Below are positions 1,178-52,947 of a stretch of DNA of 64,000 bases, one piece after another; position 1 is the first letter of the stretch; each line of letters begins with the position of its first letter. This DNA is from an uncultured bacterium (GTDB lineage Bacteria; Zhuqueibacterota; QNDG01; DSAB01): assembly GCA_964537715.1 (NCBI GenBank), contig CAZIAH010000003.1, positions 15,331 through 79,330 on the forward strand, read 5' to 3'. The translations under genes were made by a program, and so were the position numbers. The notes under the pieces were generated by a model. That model had not been told where the DNA came from. It made no database searches and saw nothing but the letters and a program-made list of their open reading frames with translations.

Positions 1178-4100
1178 TTTATCCGTCATTATCGCTGTAT
1201 TGTTGTACACCACGATTATTTTGGAAAAACCTGTTCAGGCCCAGGGTGTTGTTCCGCATATCATTGAGAGCATTTCACCGGCCAGTGCCGACGCAGGCAC
1301 ACCCAACCTCACAGTGACCATCACACTGCTAAATCTGGGCACCCCTCCAGTACCCCCATCGGAGGTGACGCCTTCAGGTCTCCGCATCGGAACTCTGGAA
1401 GCCCGATCCATCAGCCGCAGTAATTTGTTGATTACGGCAATCATTGACATCCCTGAAACTGAATCAGGCGGTACAAAAGATGTGGTACTCACATTTCCCG
1501 GACCCAATAATCAAGAGATTGTTTTTACCTTGTCCGGCGGGTTCACAGTGACAGGCAATGACACATCCGACAATCCGGTGATTGTTACTGCGGATACCGG
1601 TGATTATGTCATCGTGGATACGGGTCAGGAAACGTGTTATAATGCCACACAGGCGATCAGCACACCTCGGGTCGGAGAGGACTTTTACGGACAGGATGCA
1701 CAATTCGAAGGGAATCAGCCCAGTTATACCGTCAGCGAGGACGGCCTGACTGTTTATGACAATGTTACCGGTCTCACCTGGACCAGAGGTGCAGACTGGA
1801 ATGGCGATGAAACGGTGGACGTGAACGACAAGTTCACTTATACTGAGGCACTGAATTACGTTTCCGTAATCAACGCTCAGAACTACGGTGATTATAATGA
1901 CTGGCGCCTGCCCAGCATTAAAGAGCTCTATTCCCTGATCGACTACCGTGGCACGGATCCGAGTCCCACCGGGACAAGTGCCTCGGGGTTGGTCCCATTC
2001 ATCAATGACGAGGTCTTCGAGTTCGCGTATGGTGATATATCCGGAGGTGAACGGATCATCGATTCCCAATGGGCTACTACGACGCTCTATGTCAGTACGG
2101 TGATGAATGGCCAGCAGGCCATGTTCGGTGTGAACTTTGCCGACGGGCGAATCAAGGGCTACCCTGCTGACACCAATCCGGGGGGATTTGAGAAGACATT
2201 CTATGTTCGTTTCTGCCGCGGAAATACGGAATATGGGAAAAACAGCTTTACCGATAACGGCGACGGAACCGTAACGGACAGCGCCACCGGATTGATGTGG
2301 TCCCAGTCAGACAACGGCGCTGGCGTGAACTGGGAGGATGCCCTATCCTGGGTCCAGCAGATGAACGATGTAAATTACCTTGGATATAATGACTGGCGTC
2401 TGCCCAACGCCAAGGAACTTCAGAGCCTGGTGGACTATACACGCTCACCCGATACGCACGGCACGGCGGCCATCGATCCACTCTTCAATGCCACGCAGAT
2501 CACGAACGAGGCCGGCCAGCCGGACTACCCATTCTATTGGTCCAGCACGACTTTCCTTCGCTTCGACGGCAGTGCTGACCGAGCCGTCTACGTGGCTTTC
2601 GGAAGGGGCTTGGGTTCGATGGACGGTACGACTGTGATCGACGTACACGGAGCCGGATGCCAGCGAAGCGATTCCAAAGACGGCAACCCGGACGATTATC
2701 CCAATTGGGGCTTCGGCCCCCAGGGCGACGTGCAGCGTGTTTACAATTATGTTCGCCTGGTCCGTACAGTGGAGATATCTGAAACAAGTGAGGACGATTC
2801 CACGGATGACGGCAACGTAACGCTCTTTGCACCTATGGGCAATACGAATACTTATCTCATTGATGCAGACGACGATATCGTACACTCCTGGGAAAGCGAC
2901 TATACTCCTGCCCTGTCGGCCTACCTGTTGGATGACCGATCCCTGCTGCGAACGGCTTCTCCGGGGCGGAATGCGAACAGTGTCTTCGGAAGTGAGGGCG
3001 GTGCCGGAGGCATCGTGGAACAATACGACTGGGAAGGAAACAAAACCTGGGAATTCGAATACAACAGCAGCGACTACCTGCTTCATCACGATATCGAAGC
3101 CCTGCCCAGCGGCAACATTCTGATGATCGCCTGGGAATACAAAAGCGAAACCGAAGCCATCGAAGCGGGCCGGAATCCTTCCCTGCTTTCCGACGGCGAA
3201 CTGTGGCCGGACAAGATTATCGAGGTTGAGCCCGATGGATCATCCGGCGGTACGATCGTGTGGGAATGGCACGTCTGGGATCATTTGATTCAGGACTACG
3301 ACGCTTCCAAAGCCAATTACGGTACCGTCTCCGATCATCCGGAAAAGATCGACATCAACTTTGTGCTGCATCAGCCCAACGCCGACTGGACGCACATCAA
3401 TGGTGTGGATTACAACGCTGATCTGGACCAAATTCTGCTCACGGCACACAACTTCAGCGAGATCTGGATCATTGATCACAATACCACAACCACTGAGGCC
3501 GCGGGTGCGGCAGGCGATCTGCTCTACCGCTGGGGCAATCCTCAGACCTATGGCAGGGGCAACAGTAATGATCAACAACTCTTTGTTCCCCACGACGGTC
3601 AATGGATCGATGCCGGATGTCCCGGTGAGGATGACATTCTTATCTTCAACAACGGACAAAACCGCCAAGACGGAAACTACTCCACTGTGGATGAGATCAC
3701 ACCGCCGTGGAACGGCAGTCGCTACACAATAAACAACGGCTCCGCGTACGAACCGTTCGCGCCCGACTGGACGTACAAAGGCGATCCGGCCTCTTCCTTT
3801 TATGCGGATCACATTTCCGGTGCCCAGCGTCTTCCCGACGGCAGCACCTTGATCTGCGATGGCCCGGCCGGTAAATTCTTTGAAGTCACATCCTCTGGCG
3901 AAACCGTTTGGGAATATACCAACCCGTTCTCTTTCACCACGCCGCAGGGAGAAAGCAACGAAGTGTTTCGTGCAACCTGTTACAACCTAAATGATTTGAA
4001 CACCGGCGTGGAAGATGATATGTATCATGAAAGCGGCTCGACGGGACTTCCTGAAGCATTCACGCTCAATCAGAATTATCCCAATCCCTTTAACCCAACC

Positions 4101-40967: not shown

Positions 40968-42812
40968 TTAAAACCAGTTCACAAGTCCGACATGCACCTT
41001 GCCGCGCAGCAAAGAATCGCCTGCTCCCAATCCGTAATCCACGCCGAACAATCCCAGACGCGTTTCGATGCGGATACCGAAACCATATCCGATTTTCGTG
41101 CCGTCGATTCTTCCTGCTTCTTTTTCCTTTCTCTGGTACATGCCTGCATCAACGAAAAGAAACACACGCGACCGCCTGCCCATCAAATAGCGATACTCAG
41201 AATTCAGCCAGGCAACCAGCGAACCCCGGAACATATCCTCGCCATACCCCCGAAGAGACCGGGCTCCGCCAAACCGGATTTGATCGCTGATCGGAATAAA
41301 GTCATCTCCGGTCTTTATTTCCGTTCCATGTATGCCAAAATAGAGTACTTGCCGCCCCCAAATCGGGAATGCTGTCTCTGCGTCGATATGAACCTGGCGC
41401 ATATCCACGTGGCGTTTCCATCCTTCCTGAAGCACGATAAAATCAGGACCCATATTTTCCTTTCGCCCAAGAGTGAGAGCCGTATAATATTGTACCCCTT
41501 TTCGAGGATTCCAGGGATCGTCCATCGTATTGTATCGAATAGAGAACGTGACTTTCCATGTGCTTGTCCGGGCCAGATCATAAAGCACACTCCCCAATGA
41601 ATCCGGTAAAACCGATCTCTGTCCCCATTTCATTCCCAGCGAAAGCGAAGACCAGGGCGCATACCGGATCGATATGCCCCAATCCCGTTCAATATAGGTC
41701 GTATCCCGAATTTCCTGCTCGAACCGGCCGCCGACGTGTAGCGGCCACTCGAACAGCCACGGTTCTTCATAACCGAAACGCATGGCCTGAGAATACGCAT
41801 CCTTTTTCTCCCAGTACACATCTAATAAACGTCCGGTACCCAAAAGATTCTGAAAAGCAAACTGAAGCCGGCCCGTCCAGTAACCCGATTTTTTTTCGGT
41901 TGGCGGCGGATTATATCCCACCACACCGTCAATTGAATTGGTGTTGCCTTCTTCCACACGGAAAGTTACGAATGCCCGATCCTGGAAAAAAGAAACATCC
42001 GGTTCCGACACCTTTCGAAAATAGCCCAATCTCTGAAGATTCTCTTTTGCGGATCGTATCTCGCGATGCCGGTATAGACTTCCCAATTTCAAACGAGTTT
42101 CTCTGAGAATAACATTGGATCGTGTGACACGGTTTCCGCGAACAGATAACCCATCGATATAAACCGGACGGCCTTTATCAATGGACACGACAATTTCCAA
42201 CCGGGGTGTGCCATTTTCATGTTCGATGGACAATTCCCGTATTTCTGCCTGACAGAGCGGATGTCCCCGGTCTTCCCAATAGGTGAGAATTTCTTCCATA
42301 TCCTGTTCGAACTGCAATGCACTAAAAACCTGGTTGATCTGCGTATTCATTAATTGTTCTATTGAATTCTGATCTTCTCTTCCAAGACCGACGAGATCAA
42401 TACGTCCGATGCGGACCTGTTTCCCTTCATGAATAGTGATGGTCAGATCGACCCGGCTGCTGTCGAAAGAATAAGTCGTGCTGAATGTATCGATTCCCAC
42501 CTCATAATACCCCTGGGTGTGATACCACTGTATCAACTTTTCGAGCGATCCATCCGGCCAGTCCGATGGCAGCGCAGTTGCTTTTTTTAGATTTAATTGT
42601 TCTAAAAGGATCTCTTTTCGAACTTGATGGTTTCCCATTAGTTCGATACGGCGGATCATCGGACGCTTCGATTGTGCAAAAATGCTCTTAGAAATAATAA
42701 TTGACAAGAACAGTATCGGCAAACAGAAAAGAAAATTTTTATTTCGAAACTGCCGCATCAGAAAAATGCCCTCACTTCCATCTGTCCGATTTGATAAAGT
42801 CGTTTGCGCCAC
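40968..42812 (-). CDS. Omp85-family outer-membrane protein (TamA-sized, POTRA plus 16-strand barrel)
   Basis: Signal peptide, POTRA-like N-terminal region, C-terminal beta-signal ...GLVNWF. Confidence 0.7.
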   Translation of the reverse strand: MAQTTLSNRTDGSEGIFLMRQFRNKNFLFCLPILFLSIIISKSIFAQSKRPMIRRIELMGNHQVRKEILLEQLNLKKATALPSDWPDGSLEKLIQWYHTQGYYEVGIDTFSTTYSFDSSRVDLTITIHEGKQVRIGRIDLVGLGREDQNSIEQLMNTQINQVFSALQFEQDMEEILTYWEDRGHPLCQAEIRELSIEHENGTPRLEIVVSIDKGRPVYIDGLSVRGNRVTRSNVILRETRLKLGSLYRHREIRSAKENLQRLGYFRKVSEPDVSFFQDRAFVTFRVEEGNTNSIDGVVGYNPPPTEKKSGYWTGRLQFAFQNLLGTGRLLDVYWEKKDAYSQAMRFGYEEPWLFEWPLHVGGRFEQEIRDTTYIERDWGISIRYAPWSSLSLGMKWGQRSVLPDSLGSVLYDLARTSTWKVTFSIRYNTMDDPWNPRKGVQYYTALTLGRKENMGPDFIVLQEGWKRHVDMRQVHIDAETAFPIWGRQVLYFGIHGTEIKTGDDFIPISDQIRFGGARSLRGYGEDMFRGSLVAWLNSEYRYLMGRRSRVFLFVDAGMYQRKEKEAGRIDGTKIGYGFGIRIETRLGLFGVDYGLGAGDSLLRGKVHVGLVNWF

Positions 42813-45800
42813 GGTTCCTTTCTGGCCCGGTAATTCAGTGTGACCATCACATGACCCGACACTTTATAGGTCATCAGAACGTTCCATCGGACTGTTCTTC
42901 CCGGCTGATCTCCTCCGAACATTTCGTAGGGCAAAGAGCGTCCCGAAGGTTCGGATCGAACTTCGCCCAATTCCAGTTCCGCACGAAGATGTCCTTTTCC
43001 TAAAAATGCGTAGCTGAATCCTGGAACGATAAAAAAGGAGACCGCTTCGGTTGTAGGACGGGGAACGAAATCCTTTGCAGTCTGGATTTTGCCCTTCAAT
43101 GCAATCTCGATTTTCTGTACGGGCCGATAGGAAGCCTCTACAGTCCAAAGATAAGATCGAATGCTTCGATCCGCATTGAATCCGCTTTGATACGTCTTGG
43201 TTTCTACATGTTTCTGGTATTCAAACAGCAACCCTATTTTTTTAAGAGGATTGCCCTTAATGCGTATTCCCTGCTCTGAAAAATGGCGAATCGTGCTCTC
43301 CTGTTCAAATTGATGGTTTTCCGAATCCTCCTGCCGGTATCTAAGTTTGATACTGTATTGACTTTTTGGGGGAGTATATTCCAGATCCTGATAATAGGAA
43401 AATAGTCCACTCACCAATGTGGTGTCTGCGCCCCATTGCGGACGAATCGCAGACCGGTTCACATGAATAAAATTCTGATCTTCATCTTTTCTTTCAATGC
43501 GAAAACGCGACAAACTTTTCAGCGAGCTGATCAATCTTAAAATTCCACGCGGTTTTTGCCACAATCTCGCGCTGTTCAAACGCAACTCCAGACCACCCTT
43601 CAATGTGTTCACAGGAAGAAAGGTTCCGGTTTGGAGAGTTCTGAAAATCACATCACCATCGGCATCGGGAACATACTCGTTCAAATATTCATCATACCGG
43701 TAATTTCCCAAACCTTCACCGACCTGAATCGTATCCTTGACCATTTGAGAAATCCGGGTGGACGAAAACTGATAGTTCAGGTTCCCATCCAAAAAGGAGC
43801 GGCCCGAGGAAAACCGCATTTTTACATCGGCCAGATCCGTTTTTTGATCTTCCTGGGAAGGATCGACATAATCCCGATTCCGGTGTGTTATCATAAAAGA
43901 TGTGGACAGATAATTCTTGCACTGCCACTCTAACTGTAGACGGTCGGTTTTGGCAAGAGAATTCTTTTCAAGAGTACTGAAAATATATTTCCGTTCGTCC
44001 CGGATCACTTCATCGATTCGAAGGCGGATCGATCGTCTTCCCAACCCAAGCTGCCCGGTCCATTCGTCGAACCGGAATCCGCTCAAAATGGAATCCGGGG
44101 ATTCCTCTTTTCGGTGTTCACCGTCATAGAGAACTACAGGATCGAAAATCCAGAATTTCGCTTTAATGGATCCGCGATGCCGAAGCCAGTATCCCCTCAA
44201 ATTGCTCCCTTTTTCGGATTCGATAAGTTCCGCTCGATACTGAATTTGTGGCAACTTTGATGGATGAAAATCGGTCTCGATCAGTTTCCGGTTCGATGAA
44301 TAATTCCCGCTCTTTTTAAAACGGCCCATTTCTCCTCGAAGAGACCACAAGTTGATGGGTTCGTAAAAAACCTCCAGCTCCTGAATCTGCTCTCCCCAGT
44401 AATCACCCTCTTCGATCCCCCACCGTCTTCCGTGTTCCACTTCGCTCATTCTGCCCAGAGACCGAAATTCGTCGTTCACCCGGTAGTATTTCGCCTCGAA
44501 ACCGAATCTTCCCAATGTCTGACCGAAAAGACCGACAGGCTGATTATTCATGCGAAGTCTGCCCTGATAGGCCAATCCGATATTATTCTGATCGTTTTTC
44601 GGAGAATAGAGATTCCGATCCTGGTCGCTCAGTGCAGCTTCACTCTCGAATATCAATCCCTTTCCGAGATCGACTGACGAAGCCACATTGAACATTTGAT
44701 GACGCTGCGCCAACGGCAGAAAAACCACCGGTGAATAATCCCCTTGTCCGGCACCTTCGTACCGATAGATGCCGTACCCCTGAAAAGAGTAATCTCCCTG
44801 TCCTTCTCCTACATACGAAAACCGGACAATATAATCTCCCTTTTCTGCACCGACATATTGATAATAGACCGCGCCCAGTGTATCGATTCGATCATAATAC
44901 CCCTGATTTTCACCCGCGTATTCCGCTCCCGAGACTCGGGCCGAATCGGAATTATCGCCGGCCTGTTCAAGCACGTTTTTATAAGTATCGGTTAAGACCA
45001 CATTTAGGGGATTGTCCTTGTCATCACCCTCCCGCAGAAAGGATGCCTTGAACCGAATGCGGTCGTTCCACAGAGTCGTATTTCCGGAAAACCCGTAAAT
45101 AGTTTTCTGAAACTGTTGATCCGAATATTCAAAATCGACCGTGATTCTCGAATCCGAAGTGACGAGTCGGTTTCGAGTAAACGTGATCTGACCGTTTCCG
45201 TATTCGATCACATAATCATTGTCTTCCCCCCGCGTCATCGGTTCTCCGTCTATCCAGACCCGTTCGGTTCCCGCAAGCACGATGATCTCCCGCTGACCTG
45301 CTGCGCCGGTCAACTGGTACGGCCCCTGATTGCCCTCCTGGCCGATAAAATGATTCGTGGTAAATTGACCCTTGGATGCCGCCACGGAAAACGAGAGAGA
45401 CCCGCGATCTGTATCGACGGTTCCCATCGCTCCCTGGAGCTTTCTCGAATAGGTTCCAAATTCCGATCCATCGACCCGATACACAAAATCCCCAAGTGTT
45501 GTTTTAAAATGAGGCATTTTAATATCGATAAAAACTTTATCAATCTCCTGAAGAGTTTGTGTATTGCCCTCGGGCTGAATAGGTGTGTTTTGGTCGGTCA
45601 GAGAAGCCACGAGTTCGACATTGGAGGCGATTTTACCCGACACCTGAAGCCGCAGTCCAGATTGAAGCCGCATCCCCTGATTTGTTCCGATGGTAATTCC
45701 CCGGAATATTGATCCGCTCGACTGCAGCTCTTCACCATAACTGGGTGTGGAAGAAAGAAGTTTGCGCACTCTTGTCTTGGGTGTTCCGGGTATGGACGAC

Positions 45801-46153
45801 AATGTATCCGAAACCTGCCAGTGGCTGTATTTCAACCGAAGATGAAAAGGAAATATCCTATAAGAGGCTGTGTAGTTTTCGCCGGAATCGGGAATCATTT
45901 TGAAAATCAATTCCCCCCGAGTGGCAGACACCTCATACGTTTGTCCATATTCGAGACGGGTATTTCCCCGGCGTAGTTCGAATGCCCCCGGTATCAGGCA
46001 TTGATGCGGAAGCACATAGACCGAATCTTTGCCATTGGTTACAATGGTCGATTCACGGAGGAGCGGATCGTAAAATCCTGGATAAGTTTGCGCAAAGAGA
46101 AAAACGGGCAGACACCATAGAAAGAACAATATGCTCAAGAAATAAGGTTTCAC
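42758..46153 (-). CDS. Large (1131 aa) secreted beta-rich outer-membrane protein of unknown function; 55-bp overlap with the downstream Omp85 gene
   Basis: Signal peptide, repeated GQGDY and aromatic-rich beta-strand patterns, C-terminus ...MEVRAFF (OMP beta-signal-like). Confidence 0.55.
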   Translation of the reverse strand: MKPYFLSILFFLWCLPVFLFAQTYPGFYDPLLRESTIVTNGKDSVYVLPHQCLIPGAFELRRGNTRLEYGQTYEVSATRGELIFKMIPDSGENYTASYRIFPFHLRLKYSHWQVSDTLSSIPGTPKTRVRKLLSSTPSYGEELQSSGSIFRGITIGTNQGMRLQSGLRLQVSGKIASNVELVASLTDQNTPIQPEGNTQTLQEIDKVFIDIKMPHFKTTLGDFVYRVDGSEFGTYSRKLQGAMGTVDTDRGSLSFSVAASKGQFTTNHFIGQEGNQGPYQLTGAAGQREIIVLAGTERVWIDGEPMTRGEDNDYVIEYGNGQITFTRNRLVTSDSRITVDFEYSDQQFQKTIYGFSGNTTLWNDRIRFKASFLREGDDKDNPLNVVLTDTYKNVLEQAGDNSDSARVSGAEYAGENQGYYDRIDTLGAVYYQYVGAEKGDYIVRFSYVGEGQGDYSFQGYGIYRYEGAGQGDYSPVVFLPLAQRHQMFNVASSVDLGKGLIFESEAALSDQDRNLYSPKNDQNNIGLAYQGRLRMNNQPVGLFGQTLGRFGFEAKYYRVNDEFRSLGRMSEVEHGRRWGIEEGDYWGEQIQELEVFYEPINLWSLRGEMGRFKKSGNYSSNRKLIETDFHPSKLPQIQYRAELIESEKGSNLRGYWLRHRGSIKAKFWIFDPVVLYDGEHRKEESPDSILSGFRFDEWTGQLGLGRRSIRLRIDEVIRDERKYIFSTLEKNSLAKTDRLQLEWQCKNYLSTSFMITHRNRDYVDPSQEDQKTDLADVKMRFSSGRSFLDGNLNYQFSSTRISQMVKDTIQVGEGLGNYRYDEYLNEYVPDADGDVIFRTLQTGTFLPVNTLKGGLELRLNSARLWQKPRGILRLISSLKSLSRFRIERKDEDQNFIHVNRSAIRPQWGADTTLVSGLFSYYQDLEYTPPKSQYSIKLRYRQEDSENHQFEQESTIRHFSEQGIRIKGNPLKKIGLLFEYQKHVETKTYQSGFNADRSIRSYLWTVEASYRPVQKIEIALKGKIQTAKDFVPRPTTEAVSFFIVPGFSYAFLGKGHLRAELELGEVRSEPSGRSLPYEMFGGDQPGRTVRWNVLMTYKVSGHVMVTLNYRARKEPWRKRLYQIGQMEVRAFF

Positions 46154-47229: not shown

Positions 47230-49533
47230 CTACAAAAGTGAAAACGCTACAGTCAATCCTGCCATCACTACCGATACCATAGACATCAGCTTGATGAGGA
47301 TGTTAAGGGACGGTCCAGAAGTATCTTTAAAGGGATCGCCCACTGTATCCCCCACAACACCTGCTTTATGGGCTTCACTGCCCTTGCCACCGTGATGTCC
47401 CTTTTCAATATATTTTTTTGCATTGTCCCAGGCACCACCGGCATTGTTCAGCATACAGGCCAGTGTGAAACCCGTTGTCAAACCACCGGCCAGCAGACCC
47501 ACAACTCCGGAAACTCCCAAAACCACACCGACAGTAACCGGAACGATAATGGCGAGAATCGATGGTAAAAGCATCTCCCTCTGCGCACCCTTTGTCGAAA
47601 TAGCAACACACTTTGCATATTCAGGTTTGGCTTTTCCGGTCATAATTCCGGGAATTTCCTTAAACTGCCGTCGAACCTCCTCGACCATGGCACCGGCTGC
47701 ACGACCCACTGCTTTCATGGTCATGGCACAAAAGACAAATGCCATCATCGCTCCAATGAAAATACCGCCTAAAAGAAGCGGATTAAACAGAGAAAGGTTA
47801 TAGGCTTCGATAAAATCTTTTACCGTTGCCGTTGCCAGTTGAACGGCTCGCTGACCTTCCTGTAAAACAGGCAGATTGTCGCGATAGAAAATGATCTGAC
47901 CAACCTGTTTGATACCTTCACCGGTGCTTGAAGCCAACTTGTCCAGCCATAATCTGACCTCTTCTAGATAGGCCGCCAACAGAGCCATAGCCGTCAGAGC
48001 AGCAGAACCGATGGCGAAACCTTTACCAGTTGCAGCTGTGGTATTTCCCAACATATCCAGTGCATCGGTTCGCTCCCGAACTTCATGAGGCAGTTTAGCC
48101 ATCTCAGCGTTTCCTCCGGCATTGTCTGCAATCGGACCGAACGCATCCGTTGCCAATGTAATGCCGAGAGTAGAGAGCATTCCCACAGCAGCAAATCCGA
48201 TTCCATAAACCCCCATCGAAAAATTGGCGAAACCTCCGGCAAAGGCAAATGCTGCGATGATGCCGATAACAATCGTCACAACAGGAATCCAGGTCGAAAA
48301 CATGCCGACTGCAATTCCGTCAATAATCGTTGTCGCAGGCCCTTGCAATGCCTGATGGGCGATTCCCCGGGTGGGTTTGTACTCATCCGAGGTGAAATAT
48401 TCAGTGCCCTGACCAATGATCACGCCCGCAACCAGACCAGCCACCACGGATCCGAAAATCCCCCAGGTGACCCAACCTATCATGGCTAAACCTGCTATTG
48501 CGGCAAGAATCAATACGGAACTGCCTCCGGTTCCGAGCAAAAGGGCGTGAAGTAAATTTTTCTGAGTTGCGGATTCTTTCGCACGCACCATAAAAATACC
48601 GACAATCGATAATATAATACCAATGGCTGCAACCAGCATCGGAGCAAGCACAGCCGTTGCCTGATCCACGCTCGCAGTCAAAGGCAAGGCCGCACCTAAC
48701 GTGGCGGTGGCGAGAATGGAACCTGCATAGGATTCATATAAATCCGCACCCATGCCTGCCACATCACCTACGTTATCGCCGACATTATCGGCAATCGTCG
48801 CGGGATTTCGGGGGTCGTCTTCGGGAATACCCGCTTCTACTTTTCCTACCAAATCCGCACCGACATCCGCGGCCTTGGTGTATATCCCTCCGCCAACACG
48901 GGCAAAAAGTGCCTGGGTCGAGGCACCCATTCCAAACGTCAGCATTGTTGCTGTGATTTCAACAAGTTTATGATGTTCAGTGGTTCCGGCATGGACAAAT
49001 GTCAAACCCATAAATTTCAGGCCCTCTGCCATGTTCTGAGATGTATAGATCAACTTTGTGAGAATCAAATACCAGAGAGAAACATCCAGTACGGCAAATC
49101 CCACTACGACCAATCCCATTACAGCACCGCTTCTGAAAGCAATTCTTAATCCTTTGTTCAAAGATTTGGAAGCACCTTGCGCCGTTCTGGCAGAAGCATG
49201 GGTCGCGGTTTTCATCCCTAAAAATCCGCAAAGTCCCGAGAAAAATCCTCCCGTCAAAAAGGCAATCGGTACGAACGGGTTTTGCACACCCGCATAGGCC
49301 AGAATGGTCAAAAGAATCAGCAGAATAATAAAAACAAGTCCCACAACCTTGTACTGACGTGTAATATAGGCCATGGCACCTTCACGGATATATTGTGCTA
49401 TTTCAGCCATGGTCTTGGTTCCTTCGCTCTCTTTCATCATTTGTTTAAAAAACACAAATGCGAAAACAAGCGCTATCACAGAACTTAAAGGCATGAACCA
49501 GAAAAAACTTTCTACCATTTTTTCTCCTTGCAA
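47230..49533 (-). CDS. hppA: Membrane-bound H+(Na+)-translocating pyrophosphatase
   Basis: [14 protein letters not shown] and other V-PPase signature motifs; about 16 TM helices. Confidence 0.9.
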
Positions 49534-49580: not shown

Positions 49581-50366
49581 CTATCTACCAAACCCGATAA
49601 CCAATGCAGATCGCCACCATGCATAATATTTATTCTCCAAATCTTTTCGAGGTGGAAACGGATAAAAATAGAACTCCTTTTGATCACCGATGAAAATACC
49701 ATTTTTAATGGTTCTGTAGAGAATATCTCTCTGCATGGAGCGAATCACGGTTTTCGTTGTTTTGCTGCCCTGTTTTTTTAATTCTGTCAAACAGTCTATT
49801 AAATGATCAATATTGGGATATGGAAGATTGTGTACAAGAGCGGATCCCGGATCTTTGTCCAAATTATCTAGAATGAGTTCAACAAAAACCAGCTTTGGAA
49901 CCGAGACGGGATTTTTCCGGTCGGTAACGAACCGGCAAAATTCCAATGGCTTCAACCGGCTTACAATTAAAGGATTCACAGGGCTCAATTCCTGATAGAG
50001 ATGCAATTCCTCTTCATTACTTTGTGTGTATTTACTCTTACTGATTTCAAGAACGCGACCATCATCCGTGACGAGATAGAGATTTTTTAAAACATCAAGT
50101 GGAATATTTTCCAAAACGCGATAGATCGAGAGGTAAATGGATTGTTTGGGTCGTCCATCCGAATGAGGGATACATCGCTTGTCAATATCCGAAAAAGGGA
50201 AGTAACTGTTTCTGAAATTCGGATCCAATTCGAAAAACATGGCCTCCCCGCGTGTTCGTTTCTTCGTTCCCACTGCAAGATAATTTCCAAATTCCTCTGG
50301 AGGCAGCATCGAAACGATTAACGATTCTGGAATGAGCGATAAATAAAGATAGTATTTCATATACAT
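49581..50366 (-). CDS. Hypothetical protein (261 aa), immediately 3' of tRNA-Lys
   Basis: Long ORF, no recognised domain. Confidence 0.4.
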   Translation of the reverse strand: MYMKYYLYLSLIPESLIVSMLPPEEFGNYLAVGTKKRTRGEAMFFELDPNFRNSYFPFSDIDKRCIPHSDGRPKQSIYLSIYRVLENIPLDVLKNLYLVTDDGRVLEISKSKYTQSNEEELHLYQELSPVNPLIVSRLKPLEFCRFVTDRKNPVSVPKLVFVELILDNLDKDPGSALVHNLPYPNIDHLIDCLTELKKQGSKTTKTVIRSMQRDILYRTIKNGIFIGDQKEFYFYPFPPRKDLENKYYAWWRSALVIGFGR

Positions 50367-50554
50367 CCTCTTCTATTTTATCAAACTTAGAATTAATATG
50401 AACGTTATCAGGGGAAAAATATAGCTTTTTTTAATATCAAAATCAACAATAAATCTCCTATAAATACTTGGACAACGAGTTTGCAAAAAAATAAATTTGC
50501 AGGAAATTACAATAAAAAACCCAACTTTGCCAGTTGGGGATTTATTATCATTCG

Positions 50555-50627
50555 TACGCCCACCAGGAATCGAACCTGGAACCTCCTGATTAAGAGTCAG
50601 ATGCTCTGCCAATTGAGCTATGGGCGC
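50555..50627 (-). tRNA. tRNA-Lys (anticodon CUU)
   Basis: Minus-strand sequence GCGCCCA-TA-GCTC-AATTGGCA-GAGC-A-TCTGA-CTCTTAA-TCAGG-AGGTT-CCAGG-TTCGATT-CCTGG-TGGGCGT-A. The cloverleaf gives 73 nt, U33, and anticodon CTT. Confidence 0.85.
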
Positions 50628-50899
50628 AAAATCAGACAGGAATGAATACCTTGCAAATTAAATCTCGATCTGCATATTTTGTGTACGCTAATTTACATAA
50701 TATAACAAAGTTTGTCAAGTTCTTGAGGAAACTTAATATCATCATCTATAAAATCTACAGAATAGGTTTCATCATCCAGAAACAGAAGGAACGTTTCATT
50801 GATCCAATGAGTACCGACCTAAATAGAGATGGATACAATGGTAAAAATATATTTTCTCAAGGCTATATATAACCACTTTATTTCCATTGTGAATGACAG

Positions 50900-52705
50900 T
50901 TACCTTTCTTCGGAAATGAGTTTTAACAATGCTTTTGCTGCAACTTCGGGACCCGATGTTTCACACCCTTTTATTCCCAGCCGGGTTCGGATCTGCCCAA
51001 CAAAAATGCGGTTTTTAAAAAACGTTTCGAAATACTTTTGGGCAATTTTCTCGTGCAGTGCTTTATACTGCGGAGGGCCAAAAATATTGGCAAAATAGGA
51101 ATGAACGATTCCTGTCGAAGTAGTGGTACCCTTGCTCATGACGGTTCCTTCACGGAAAATCCGGAGAGCCTCCTCCGGCGTGGAAAACCTTTCGATGACA
51201 GGATGATCAGCATCGATCTCTTCATAATTATTGGCATACAAAACAAAATCAATGGGATACCCATGCATGATCACTTCGTAGGAAGAAACCGGCAGAATGG
51301 CACGCGCATTGATCTGGCTGGGACTCATGATGATCACCCGGTCGATCTGTCCGAAAGCATATCCAGGCTGCAAATCGTCCAATCGAACGAACGCGCCGAT
51401 CTCCGTCCCGTATCCTTTGATGGATTCATTTTTGTCAATACGGACAGATCCCATGTCATCCGAAACAATGGTGATATCCTGAATTTCGGAATCGCCCAAA
51501 ATTCGTAATGCTTCCAGGGTTTCTGATTTGCCGGCTCCGGTATCTCCCATGATCAGCACATTCGCCGGTCGATTGGAATGGCAGGTGATGCGAATCAAGG
51601 CACCGTGGAATGGGAATTCATTTCGCTGCATGATTTTGATATTGTGCAGGGTTAAAACCATCTTTTTCAAATATCCGAAATAGCCAAACTCGTCCCGGTT
51701 CGGCACCGCTGCAACCAACATTTGATTTTTAACATCTTCATAGAAGACCGTAGGAAATTCTGCCAGATTATCCAAGGAATTGCCCGGCACTCCAAACAGA
51801 TAGATCCCGTCGGGCTTTTGTTTGAGATCATCTTCGTTGGCGAGTTCAAATAAATTACAGAGTGAAAATCCGATCTCATAAAATTTCTGATGAAAATAGA
51901 TGAGAATCAATAAATCTCCGACTTTGGCCGGATAGCAGATCCATTCGTCCTTGCGAAGATTCACTACCTCCAAAGGATTGGTTTCGATGCGAATGAAACT
52001 TCCCGTTCTTTTATTCATGGGCGGGTTTAAAATCAAAGGCGGATTTAGAAGAATCTGATGAATGAGACCAATCCCGTTGAGCTGAGCATATGATTTTCCG
52101 AAAGGCGGCTTGTATCGGGATGAAGCGATTGAGGCGATTTCAGCACCGGCCCGAACCTGGCGGTAGACCACCGGGTGCTGACCGGTGATGTTTTCCTGTA
52201 CATCCCGATAGATCCTGCGCACAAGATGGGTCAACGATTCGATGGTGTCATTGAAAATCCGATAAGGCCGTTTCTCCAGTTCGGAATCCAGGGAAGAGCA
52301 GATAATAAAACGGTCAAAACTCCTCCAGTAATTGTACATAAATTCGACGAAATCATTAAACCGTCTTTTGTCTTTTAAAAAGCACACGGCACCATCGACA
52401 ATTTTTTCGACTTCTTTTTTCTTGATTTTCGTCAGATAAATCAAAACTTGTTTCAATATCTTCATATCTTTTTTCTGAATATTCTTCTTATCGGGGAAAA
52501 TATCGAGCAGAACGGAATTCCGATCAGACAGATGATCCACTGTTCTGGAAAGAAATGCATGAAACAGAGGACTAGATAGCAATTCTTCCGGCGAATCACA
52601 GAGTTTGTTTCCTGCATGAATCACGATCTTGTTTTCGATAAATTTATAAATCTGTGGCTGGTCCTCCGTAGCACCCTGATCCATTTTTTCTTTTTGAGTT
52701 TTCAT
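50900..52705 (-). CDS. Uncharacterised 601-aa protein with a C-terminal HprK/P-like P-loop kinase domain
   Basis: VLIMGDTGAGKSETLEALRILGDSEIQDITIVSDD resembles the HPr kinase C-terminal Walker A (GDSGVGKSE...ADD); the N-terminal 400 aa are unassigned. Confidence 0.5.
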   Translation of the reverse strand: MKTQKEKMDQGATEDQPQIYKFIENKIVIHAGNKLCDSPEELLSSPLFHAFLSRTVDHLSDRNSVLLDIFPDKKNIQKKDMKILKQVLIYLTKIKKKEVEKIVDGAVCFLKDKRRFNDFVEFMYNYWRSFDRFIICSSLDSELEKRPYRIFNDTIESLTHLVRRIYRDVQENITGQHPVVYRQVRAGAEIASIASSRYKPPFGKSYAQLNGIGLIHQILLNPPLILNPPMNKRTGSFIRIETNPLEVVNLRKDEWICYPAKVGDLLILIYFHQKFYEIGFSLCNLFELANEDDLKQKPDGIYLFGVPGNSLDNLAEFPTVFYEDVKNQMLVAAVPNRDEFGYFGYLKKMVLTLHNIKIMQRNEFPFHGALIRITCHSNRPANVLIMGDTGAGKSETLEALRILGDSEIQDITIVSDDMGSVRIDKNESIKGYGTEIGAFVRLDDLQPGYAFGQIDRVIIMSPSQINARAILPVSSYEVIMHGYPIDFVLYANNYEEIDADHPVIERFSTPEEALRIFREGTVMSKGTTTSTGIVHSYFANIFGPPQYKALHEKIAQKYFETFFKNRIFVGQIRTRLGIKGCETSGPEVAAKALLKLISEER

Positions 52706-52947
52706 TCATGTTTTCCTTAACTTAAATAGTTATGGTATCATTCCTGTTGATTATATCAATTCTCGAAATTTCTTCCAATCGATATTTAACTTTCTCATTC
52801 GCGCCCGTAGCGTGTTTGGATTGACCCGAAGCAGCTGCGCCGCTCCCTTCTCTCCCTCGACGCGGCCTTTGGTATACCTCAAAGCCGGCTCGGTATGTTT
52901 TTTCACCACAACATCGAGAAAGGAAAAAGTAACGATCTGAATCGTTT

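Follow-up and report, generated by a model that had tools for sequence, protein, structure and literature searches.

A protein of the PEP-carboxykinase superfamily and a gene adjoining a membrane pyrophosphatase on either side of a tRNA-Lys gene

Introduction

The interconversion of PEP and oxaloacetate is a key node in anaerobic carbon and energy metabolism. In PEP carboxykinases (PEPCKs) the Lys-Lys pair, a His and an Asp bind Mn2+, the P-loop Lys-Ser binds the Mg-nucleotide, and a Tyr and the Asn-x-Arg motif bind the carboxylate/phosphate substrate. For E. coli PckA we take the Mn2+/substrate residues to be Y207, K212, K213, and H232, the substrate/phosphate-binding Asn-x-Arg to be N331 and R333, the kinase-2 metal ligand to be D268/D269, and the N-domain Arg to be R65. 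To our knowledge, HprK is without the PEPCK-specific motifs described below. Membrane pyrophosphatases are described as homodimers of one polypeptide that have no accessory subunits, and we know of no conserved upstream gene described as encoding a soluble partner for them.

Here we analyze an interval of a 64,000-nucleotide stretch of DNA (the window) from an uncultured bacterium. We consider it probable that this interval combines a metabolic enzyme of the PEPCK superfamily, an ordinary tRNA gene and a gene for a 261-aa protein that is tied to a membrane pyrophosphatase.

Results

All features of the interval are on the minus strand. A stand-alone tRNA-Lys(CUU) with anticodon CTT (50554..50627, -) was identified by ARAGORN and by Rfam (RF00005, 72 bits), in agreement with the initial annotation, and the Rfam scan of the interval found the tRNA only. 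It is located between two called open reading frames of 261 (49581..50366, -) and 601 amino acids (50900..52705, -). Because the mean column identity is 67% (28 homologues) for the 601-aa ORF and 72% (25 homologues) for the 261-aa ORF, both are regarded as real genes. Both had been described as lacking a recognizable family, and indeed neither reached any curated cut-off in Pfam and NCBIfam searches. The ORFs scanned (36-64 kb) encode an NHL-repeat protein, a pyrophosphatase, GH35, GH88, GH3, Omp85, and similar proteins.

Promoter-like sites were found by consensus scan 5' of the 601-aa gene (TTGGAA-17-TATAAT plus TG; 52750..52778, -; 10/12, a consensus match only) and 5' of the tRNA (TTGACA-17-TAAATT; 50690..50718, -; 10/12). 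An intrinsic-terminator-like hairpin with a T-run, CCCAACTGGCAAAGTTGGG then TTTTTTATTG, is located just 3' of the tRNA (50520..50538, -). The tRNA-Lys(CUU) would be an ordinary gene served by a promoter-like site and a terminator of its own, and the interval would hold three independent transcription units, adjacent in this lineage alone.

Structure comparison found the two-domain PEPCK fold, with an N-domain and a P-loop-containing C-domain, in the predicted model of the 601-aa protein, which has low confidence for the active-site loops 445-467 and 522-536. The predicted fold resembles all three PEPCK classes (ATP, GTP, and PPi). Residues 341-601 (50903..51685, -) make up a PEPCK-type catalytic and nucleotide-binding domain with motifs that align to PckA. 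They are preceded by a beta-rich region (residues ~180-340; 51686..52168, -) that corresponds to a portion of the N-terminal domain of PEPCK and carries the N231-K-R233 loop, and by an extra, mostly helical N-terminal module (residues ~20-175, with residues ~39-175 at 52181..52591, -) without a PEPCK counterpart. The N-terminal ~400 residues had initially been called unknown; this description still fits residues ~20-175, but residues ~180-370 correspond to the N-domain of PEPCK together with the first part of its catalytic core.

The translation contains the P-loop/Walker A motif GDTGAGKSET (residues 387-396; 51518..51547, -) followed by IVSDD, as had been pointed out from the sequence. In addition the protein has the motifs YFGYLKK (51662-51682, -) and NAR (N466-A-R468; 51299-51307, -), and residues 341-601 also contain PFHGA with H367, ITIVSDD, GTEIGAFVRLDD, and MSKGTTTSTG..YFANIFG. 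In an alignment of 207 family sequences N231, R233, Y342, K347, K348, H367, K393, S394, D416, D417, N466, and R468 were invariant, as were the P-loop residues G387, G392, and E395.

With the 35-sequence profile A3, hhalign aligned the family to E. coli PckA over 237 columns (probability 70.7%, E 3.8e-5); with a narrower profile the alignment was statistically weak (probability 7.5%), and it rose with the broader A3. YFGYLKK was paired with YGGEMKK, placing Y342, K347, and K348 on the Tyr-x4-Lys-Lys motif of PckA. The P-loops were paired with each other, GDTGAGKS (residues 387-394) being aligned to GLSGTGKT in agreement with GxxGxGK(S/T). NAR..P was paired with NTR..P, so that N466-A-R468 is aligned to NTR with a conserved Pro after both, and GT.MSKGTT..G..FAN.FG with GFTAKLAGTERG..FSACFG. 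Residues 278-340 were placed on PckA 144-205 (NLFEL..KPD on NMFIR..KPD), and the spacing from K348 to H367 is the same as from K213 to H232 in PckA, 19 residues. The invariant D416/D417 of ITIVSDD were set on PckA D275-277 and not on the Mn2+-ligand pair D268/D269; judged by its sequence, ITIVSDD looks equivalent to the kinase-2 hhhhDD metal ligand of PckA. The aligned columns do not include the R65 region of PckA and R233 lies outside them; we infer that R233 is the R65 equivalent.

Fold and residue conservation place the 601-aa protein in a branch of the PEPCK superfamily that has no Pfam or NCBIfam model. PEPCK_ATP (PF01293) gave weak matches in 19 of 28 family members, and the Limosilactobacillus branch scored 23.9-25.2 bits against a cut-off of 26.5, while the protein from the window gave no match to this model at E<=0.1. 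Its score on the PEPCK model NF006821 was 12.2 bits (cut-off 369). PDB sequence searches with the single sequence and with the profiles A1 and A2 returned nothing useful.

Databases contain more than 7,400 proteins of the family, which was found in at least 578 species genomes of at least 15 lineages, covering many phyla of anaerobes and the genus Limosilactobacillus. Orthologs include those of Atrimonas thermophila (WP_412710218.1) and L. fermentum (AYP99509.1). The proteins form only 741 clusters at 50% identity, and members are 53-65% identical across phyla. By these figures, the family is broadly distributed and evolves slowly. The gene stands alone, no neighbor being common to different phyla. 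A full-text literature search found no description or enzymatic data for any member; a "PEP carboxykinase-like" mention for Heliomicrobium was considered and set aside, as no link to the family could be made.

The 601-aa protein would be cytoplasmic. It joins a PEPCK-like N-domain and catalytic domain to the extra helical N-terminal module and retains the PEPCK residues for Mn2+ (the Asp being a putative equivalent), Mg-nucleotide and substrate, with Arg233 probably among those for the substrate. Since these residues are kept, metal-dependent phosphoryl transfer is the most likely activity, presumably between a nucleotide and an acid of the PEP/oxaloacetate type. The protein may be either a PEP carboxykinase that has diverged or an enzyme of closely similar mechanism, acting in the central metabolism of anaerobes.

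A more specific reading, to which we give somewhat less than an even chance, is that its members are true PEP carboxykinases (OAA + NTP <-> PEP + CO2 + NDP), which would add a fourth sequence class to the ATP-, GTP-, and PPi-types. The invariance of every alignable PEPCK-type motif and the likeness in fold to all three classes argue for this, as do the lone gene, typical of central-metabolism genes, and the name "phosphoenolpyruvate carboxykinase" given by NCBI and UniRef to members from Atribacterota, Omnitrophota, and Limosilactobacillus. However, the NCBI name is based on sub-threshold similarity only, the R65 equivalent is putative, and the extra N-terminal module together with the very strong conservation suggests constraints beyond those of an ordinary PEPCK. 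Furthermore, at one Omnitrophota locus (one genome) a classical PckA is present 6.6 kb from the family member, and the family is therefore not a simple replacement of PckA. Assignment as a genuine PEPCK is a sharper form of our best explanation and agrees with the automatic NCBI name.

The 261-aa gene is followed on the same strand, after a gap of 47 nt in which a scan found no terminator-like site, by a gene for a membrane-integral cation-pumping pyrophosphatase (47230..49533, -; Pfam H_PPase, 875 bits; NCBIfam NF001954, 1019 bits against a cut-off of 894). A pyrophosphatase was found in the flank of the 261-aa gene in 62 of 80 loci, and directly downstream on the same strand at a distance of 22-180 nt in 54 of the 71 loci with room downstream; this linkage is one of gene order and says nothing on the biochemical role. 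The 261-aa protein is predicted to have a new fold: a PDB structure search with its confident model found no structural relative. The literature search returned nothing on the 261-aa family or on a conserved upstream soluble partner of membrane pyrophosphatases. The gene would be co-transcribed with the pyrophosphatase gene and functionally tied to it, and its product may act as a soluble partner or in the handling of PPi/phosphate.

It is unlikely that the 261-aa protein is functionally unrelated to the pyrophosphatase and that their adjacency is merely a gene order inherited within one superphylum. Named members of the family are mostly from FCB-group lineages, so shared ancestry could explain part of the co-occurrence, and about 10 loci are without a nearby pyrophosphatase. 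Against this, the pair stays together while its surroundings change (no other neighbor occurs in more than eight of the 80 loci), the genes are on the same strand with short gaps (median 42 nt), seven loci have them head-to-head and still adjacent, and identity between the 261-aa proteins falls to 53%, which indicates long divergence. The proposed pairing of the 261-aa gene with the 601-aa gene was rejected, both being present together in none of 160 loci.

The Walker A motif had originally suggested an HprK/P-like protein kinase/phosphorylase in signaling, which we now find very improbable. The 601-aa protein gave sub-threshold P-loop matches only, with 13.3 bits on Hpr_kinase_C (PF07475; cut-off 33.3) and 13 bits on TIGR00679 (cut-off 240), the match to HprK covers 123-143 residues, and motifs specific to PEPCK are present. 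A function in defense was likewise dismissed: PADLOC 2.0 matches reached only 13-17 bits, three of four on the P-loop segment (best for the 601-aa protein 17 bits, E 7.7e-4, on that segment; none for the 261-aa protein), a phage search with the 601-aa family gave no match, and there is no defense context.

We find it most improbable that the tRNA anchors a variable or mobile region with defense cargo here. In favor of such a region, a close, ~80%-identical relative differs by three small indels, one of them exactly at the tRNA 3' end, and GC falls to 0.37 at 50-51 kb. However, the AT-rich intergenic DNA on either side of the tRNA lies where GC is low, and both flanking ORFs are present and collinear in that relative. 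Each ORF is from a large family with vertical conservation, in which a tRNA adjoins only 5 of 80 loci. The tRNA 3' end matches nothing but the tRNA itself in the 64-kb window with up to three mismatches allowed, and no integrase or mobile gene occurs among the ORFs of 36-64 kb. Neither this tRNA as an integration anchor nor an island was therefore retained.

Discussion

A family with PEPCK motifs that is this large and conserved has no curated model, and its reaction, once defined, would correct thousands of annotations. Metabolic reconstructions of many uncultured phyla and of Limosilactobacillus therefore ignore the family or call it PEPCK on sub-threshold similarity. The operon of the 261-aa gene and the pyrophosphatase provides a concrete candidate accessory factor for pumps now viewed as single-subunit. 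More speculatively, the 601-aa family could be a fourth, mechanistically distinct PEPCK class, or could consist of kinases with the PEPCK fold that act on a new central metabolite, with a regulatory globin-like N-terminal module, in anaerobes from Omnitrophota to lactobacilli, and independently the 261-aa protein could be the first soluble protein dedicated to partnering a membrane pyrophosphatase, as a regulator or PPi-handling enzyme with a new fold. We regard this combination as possible but doubtful.

Compared to the ATP-dependent PckA (PF01293; E. coli b3403, T. cruzi 1ii2), the 601-aa protein has ~13% identity and stays below all curated cut-offs, has an extra helical N-terminal module of ~150 residues, and differs in sequence around the putative R65 loop, and its P-loop and Walker-B sequences are nearer to HprK. 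It has no detectable sequence similarity to the GTP- and PPi-dependent PEPCKs (9e32, 8e1u) and is unlike them in size and extra domains. The likeness to HprK/P is limited to the nucleotide-binding core (123-143 residues by structure comparison); the protein lacks an Hpr_kinase_N domain, is encoded outside any PTS context, and carries PEPCK-specific motifs. The gene downstream of the 261-aa gene in the window encodes a canonical member of the membrane-integral pyrophosphatases (H_PPase, PF03030).

Gene Order Around tRNA-Lys

The tRNA-Lys(CUU) gene (50554..50627, minus strand) is located between two open reading frames on the same strand, one encoding a protein of 601 aa (50900..52705) and the other a protein of 261 aa (49581..50366). 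A promoter-like site (50718..50690, minus strand) was found for the tRNA gene, which is followed by a hairpin with a T-run (50538..50520, minus strand). Neither ORF reached a curated cut-off in Pfam or NCBIfam, and the P-loop GDTGAGKSET was found in the 601-aa protein (51518-51547, minus strand). The description in the initial annotation, a tRNA gene flanked by two ORFs of no recognizable family, one of them with a P-loop, was therefore confirmed. A sub-threshold match to the Rfam model 'Plastid-ycf2 5'UTR' (42 bits vs. 65.7) at 50554-50627 on the plus strand, opposite to the tRNA, is almost certainly spurious and due to tRNA-like sequence in the model.

It had also been noted that tRNA genes are common anchors for integration and variable regions. 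No second copy of the tRNA 3' end was present in the window, even when three mismatches were allowed, and the ORF scan, which covered 36 to 64 kb of the window, found no integrase or defence gene. The closest relative (two overlapping contigs, L006 of GCA_964617625.1 and L090, with approximately 80% nucleotide identity) has the same gene order: GH35, 601-aa gene, tRNA-Lys, 261-aa gene, and pyrophosphatase. The region is collinear with the window except for three extra gene blocks, none with an integrase beside it. These are a phosphate-ABC/porin/sigma-54-activator block (L006 3524-9917, relative to window 52928|52953), a Na/H-exchanger-EIIA gene (L006 11898-13604, window 50723|50913), and a 1.57-kb PKD/Fib_succ_major gene located exactly at the tRNA-Lys 3' end (L006 13921-15491, window 50538|50551). 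With the 3' end unrepeated in the window, no integrase among the scanned ORFs and the relative otherwise collinear, an island at tRNA-Lys was rejected; the adjacency of the 601-aa and 261-aa genes is a lineage-specific gene order with small indels.

The 261-aa Gene Is Linked to a Membrane Pyrophosphatase

The 261-aa protein had 2,312 homologues, the top 120 being 57-89% identical to it, and no sequence match in Pfam, NCBIfam or PDB. Homologues with a named source came from KSB1, Calditrichota, Ignavibacteriales, Melioribacteraceae, and Bacteroidota. In the window, a membrane pyrophosphatase of 767 aa (47230..49533, minus strand; 1019 bits against NF001954) lies 47 nt beyond the 261-aa ORF, with no terminator-like site in the gap. 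Of 80 metagenome loci carrying the 261-aa gene, 71 offered at least 400 nt of downstream sequence, and 54 of these had a same-strand membrane pyrophosphatase 22-180 nt downstream. Clustering of ORFs placed a pyrophosphatase in the flank at 62 of the 80 loci, with 57 ORFs lying downstream at a median gap of 42 nt and 7 lying upstream in divergent orientation. Every other neighbour recurred in at most 8 loci. The conserved unit is therefore the 261-aa gene together with the pyrophosphatase. Co-occurrence with the 601-aa gene was not borne out: a 601-aa homologue was found at 0 of these 80 loci and a 261-aa homologue at 0 of 80 genome loci of the 601-aa gene.

Residues K36, R37, K74, R83, K205, R209, R218, and E86 of the 261-aa protein are invariant, and R39, D101, and D102 nearly so. 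These charged residues suggest a putative anion or metal site.

Further along the minus strand, a 1131-aa ORF without a Pfam match at 1e-5 (42758-46153) is located immediately upstream of an Omp85/POTRA gene (40968-42812), with which it overlaps. The two may represent a TamB/TamA-like pair.

The 601-aa Protein Belongs to the PEPCK Superfamily

The 601-aa protein had been read as HprK-like and as a candidate for signalling or defence. Only weak P-loop matches were obtained, including Hpr_kinase_C at 13.3 bits vs. a cut-off of 33.3; the PEP carboxykinase (PEPCK) model NF006821 gave 12.2 bits vs. 369. Modelling with AlphaFold2 from 28 homologues gave a pLDDT of 78.6 and a pTM of 0.82. Alignment by hhalign of a 35-sequence profile with PckA, the ATP-dependent PEPCK of E. 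coli, gave a probability of 70.7% (E 3.8e-5, 237 columns), with residues 278-543 matching PckA 144-410. NLFEL..KPD was paired with NMFIR..KPD, YFGYLKK with YGGEMKK, P-loop with P-loop, NAR..P with NTR..P, and GTVMSKGTTTSTG..YFANIFG with GFTAKLAGTERG..FSACFG. The reading of the protein as an HprK-like kinase is unlikely.

PckA contacts its substrate, Mn2+, and Mg-ATP through residues Y207, K212, K213, H232, K254, T255, D268, D269, and R333. In 207 sequences of the 601-aa family Y342, K347, K348, H367, K393, S394, D416, D417, N466, and R468 were invariant, and we propose from the sequences that these are the PckA active-site equivalents. The putative equivalence to D268/D269 is uncertain, as hhalign sets the DD pair against PckA D275-277. 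N231 and R233 were also invariant; R233 lies outside the aligned region and its match to PckA R65 is putative and uncertain.

The family comprises more than 7,400 database proteins, the best 120 being 58-92% identical over 93-100% of the length. A scan with one genome per species found it in at least 578 genomes, at 53-61% identity to the window protein. It is present in Victivallales, Negativicutes (Propionispora, Pelosinus), Atribacterota, Planctomycetales, Omnitrophota, Neomarinimicrobiota, Anaerolineae, Bacteroidales, Spirochaetota, KSB1, Thermodesulfobacteriota, Syntrophorhabdus, Smithella, Actinomycetota, and one Bathyarchaeota bin. When 1.84 billion representatives at 50% identity were searched exhaustively with the family HMM, only 741 clusters were obtained, of which 212 had E<=1e-30. 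The family is taxonomically broad yet slowly evolving. Throughout the genus Limosilactobacillus it is represented by a more divergent branch (33-36% identity, BLASTP E 8e-107). Some sources name some members 'phosphoenolpyruvate carboxykinase'; no curated model in the Pfam and NCBIfam searches backs this name.

A sister family of 637-673 aa (proteins P0372, P0373, P0394, and P0396) keeps the motifs YFGYxKK, PLHC, ADDMG, GTETGAF, and N(A/S)R and lacks a stretch of about 22 residues including the P-loop at its usual place. GDSRTGKSET is found at the extreme C-terminus, past an extra helical stretch (WDSRTWKSET in the W-rich P0396), as though the P-loop had been relocated or permuted. Pfam DUF4914 weakly matched 7 of the 28 homologues in the profile set, as well as protein P0316 (E 4e-4), and may be a further distant branch of the same superfamily.

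Genomic Context of the 601-aa Family

Neighbours of the 601-aa gene vary from phylum to phylum; among the 80 genome loci they recurred only through about 20 Bacteroidales loci with shared lineage-specific housekeeping synteny. A tRNA of any kind was found at 5 of the 80 loci, in no case tRNA-Lys. At two Omnitrophota loci (L031 2185-2256 and L055 3417-3491) a tRNA-Arg(CCG) lies about 37 nt downstream of the homologue, which is another lineage-specific tRNA adjacency.

PADLOC gave only four matches, all at 13-17 bits and three of them on the P-loop segment. No match to the family was found in a phage search, and the single match in a plasmid search was a chromosome-like L. fermentum record. In this record (CP033373.1, strain DR9 'plasmid unnamed2', 251 kb, typed as a mobilizable plasmid) the family member is surrounded by genes for Mn-dependent pyrophosphatase, msrB, rarA, and cytosine deaminase, all of them housekeeping genes; the record may be a chromosomal segment or chromid.

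Altogether, the locus consists of a metabolic enzyme of the PEPCK superfamily, an ordinary tRNA gene, and a new orphan gene linked to a pyrophosphatase. What is established for the 601-aa protein, clearly an uncharacterised enzyme of this superfamily, is its fold, motif conservation and distribution, and for the 261-aa gene its linkage; any reaction assigned to the one or role assigned to the other would be putative. One Omnitrophota MAG contig (L034) carries an ATP-PEPCK of the canonical type (1805-3403, minus strand), which shares 57-67% identity with E. coli PckA and is split over several frames, probably by assembly frameshifts. This classical PckA is located 6.6 kb from a member of the 601-aa family, which means that the family does not simply take the place of PckA.
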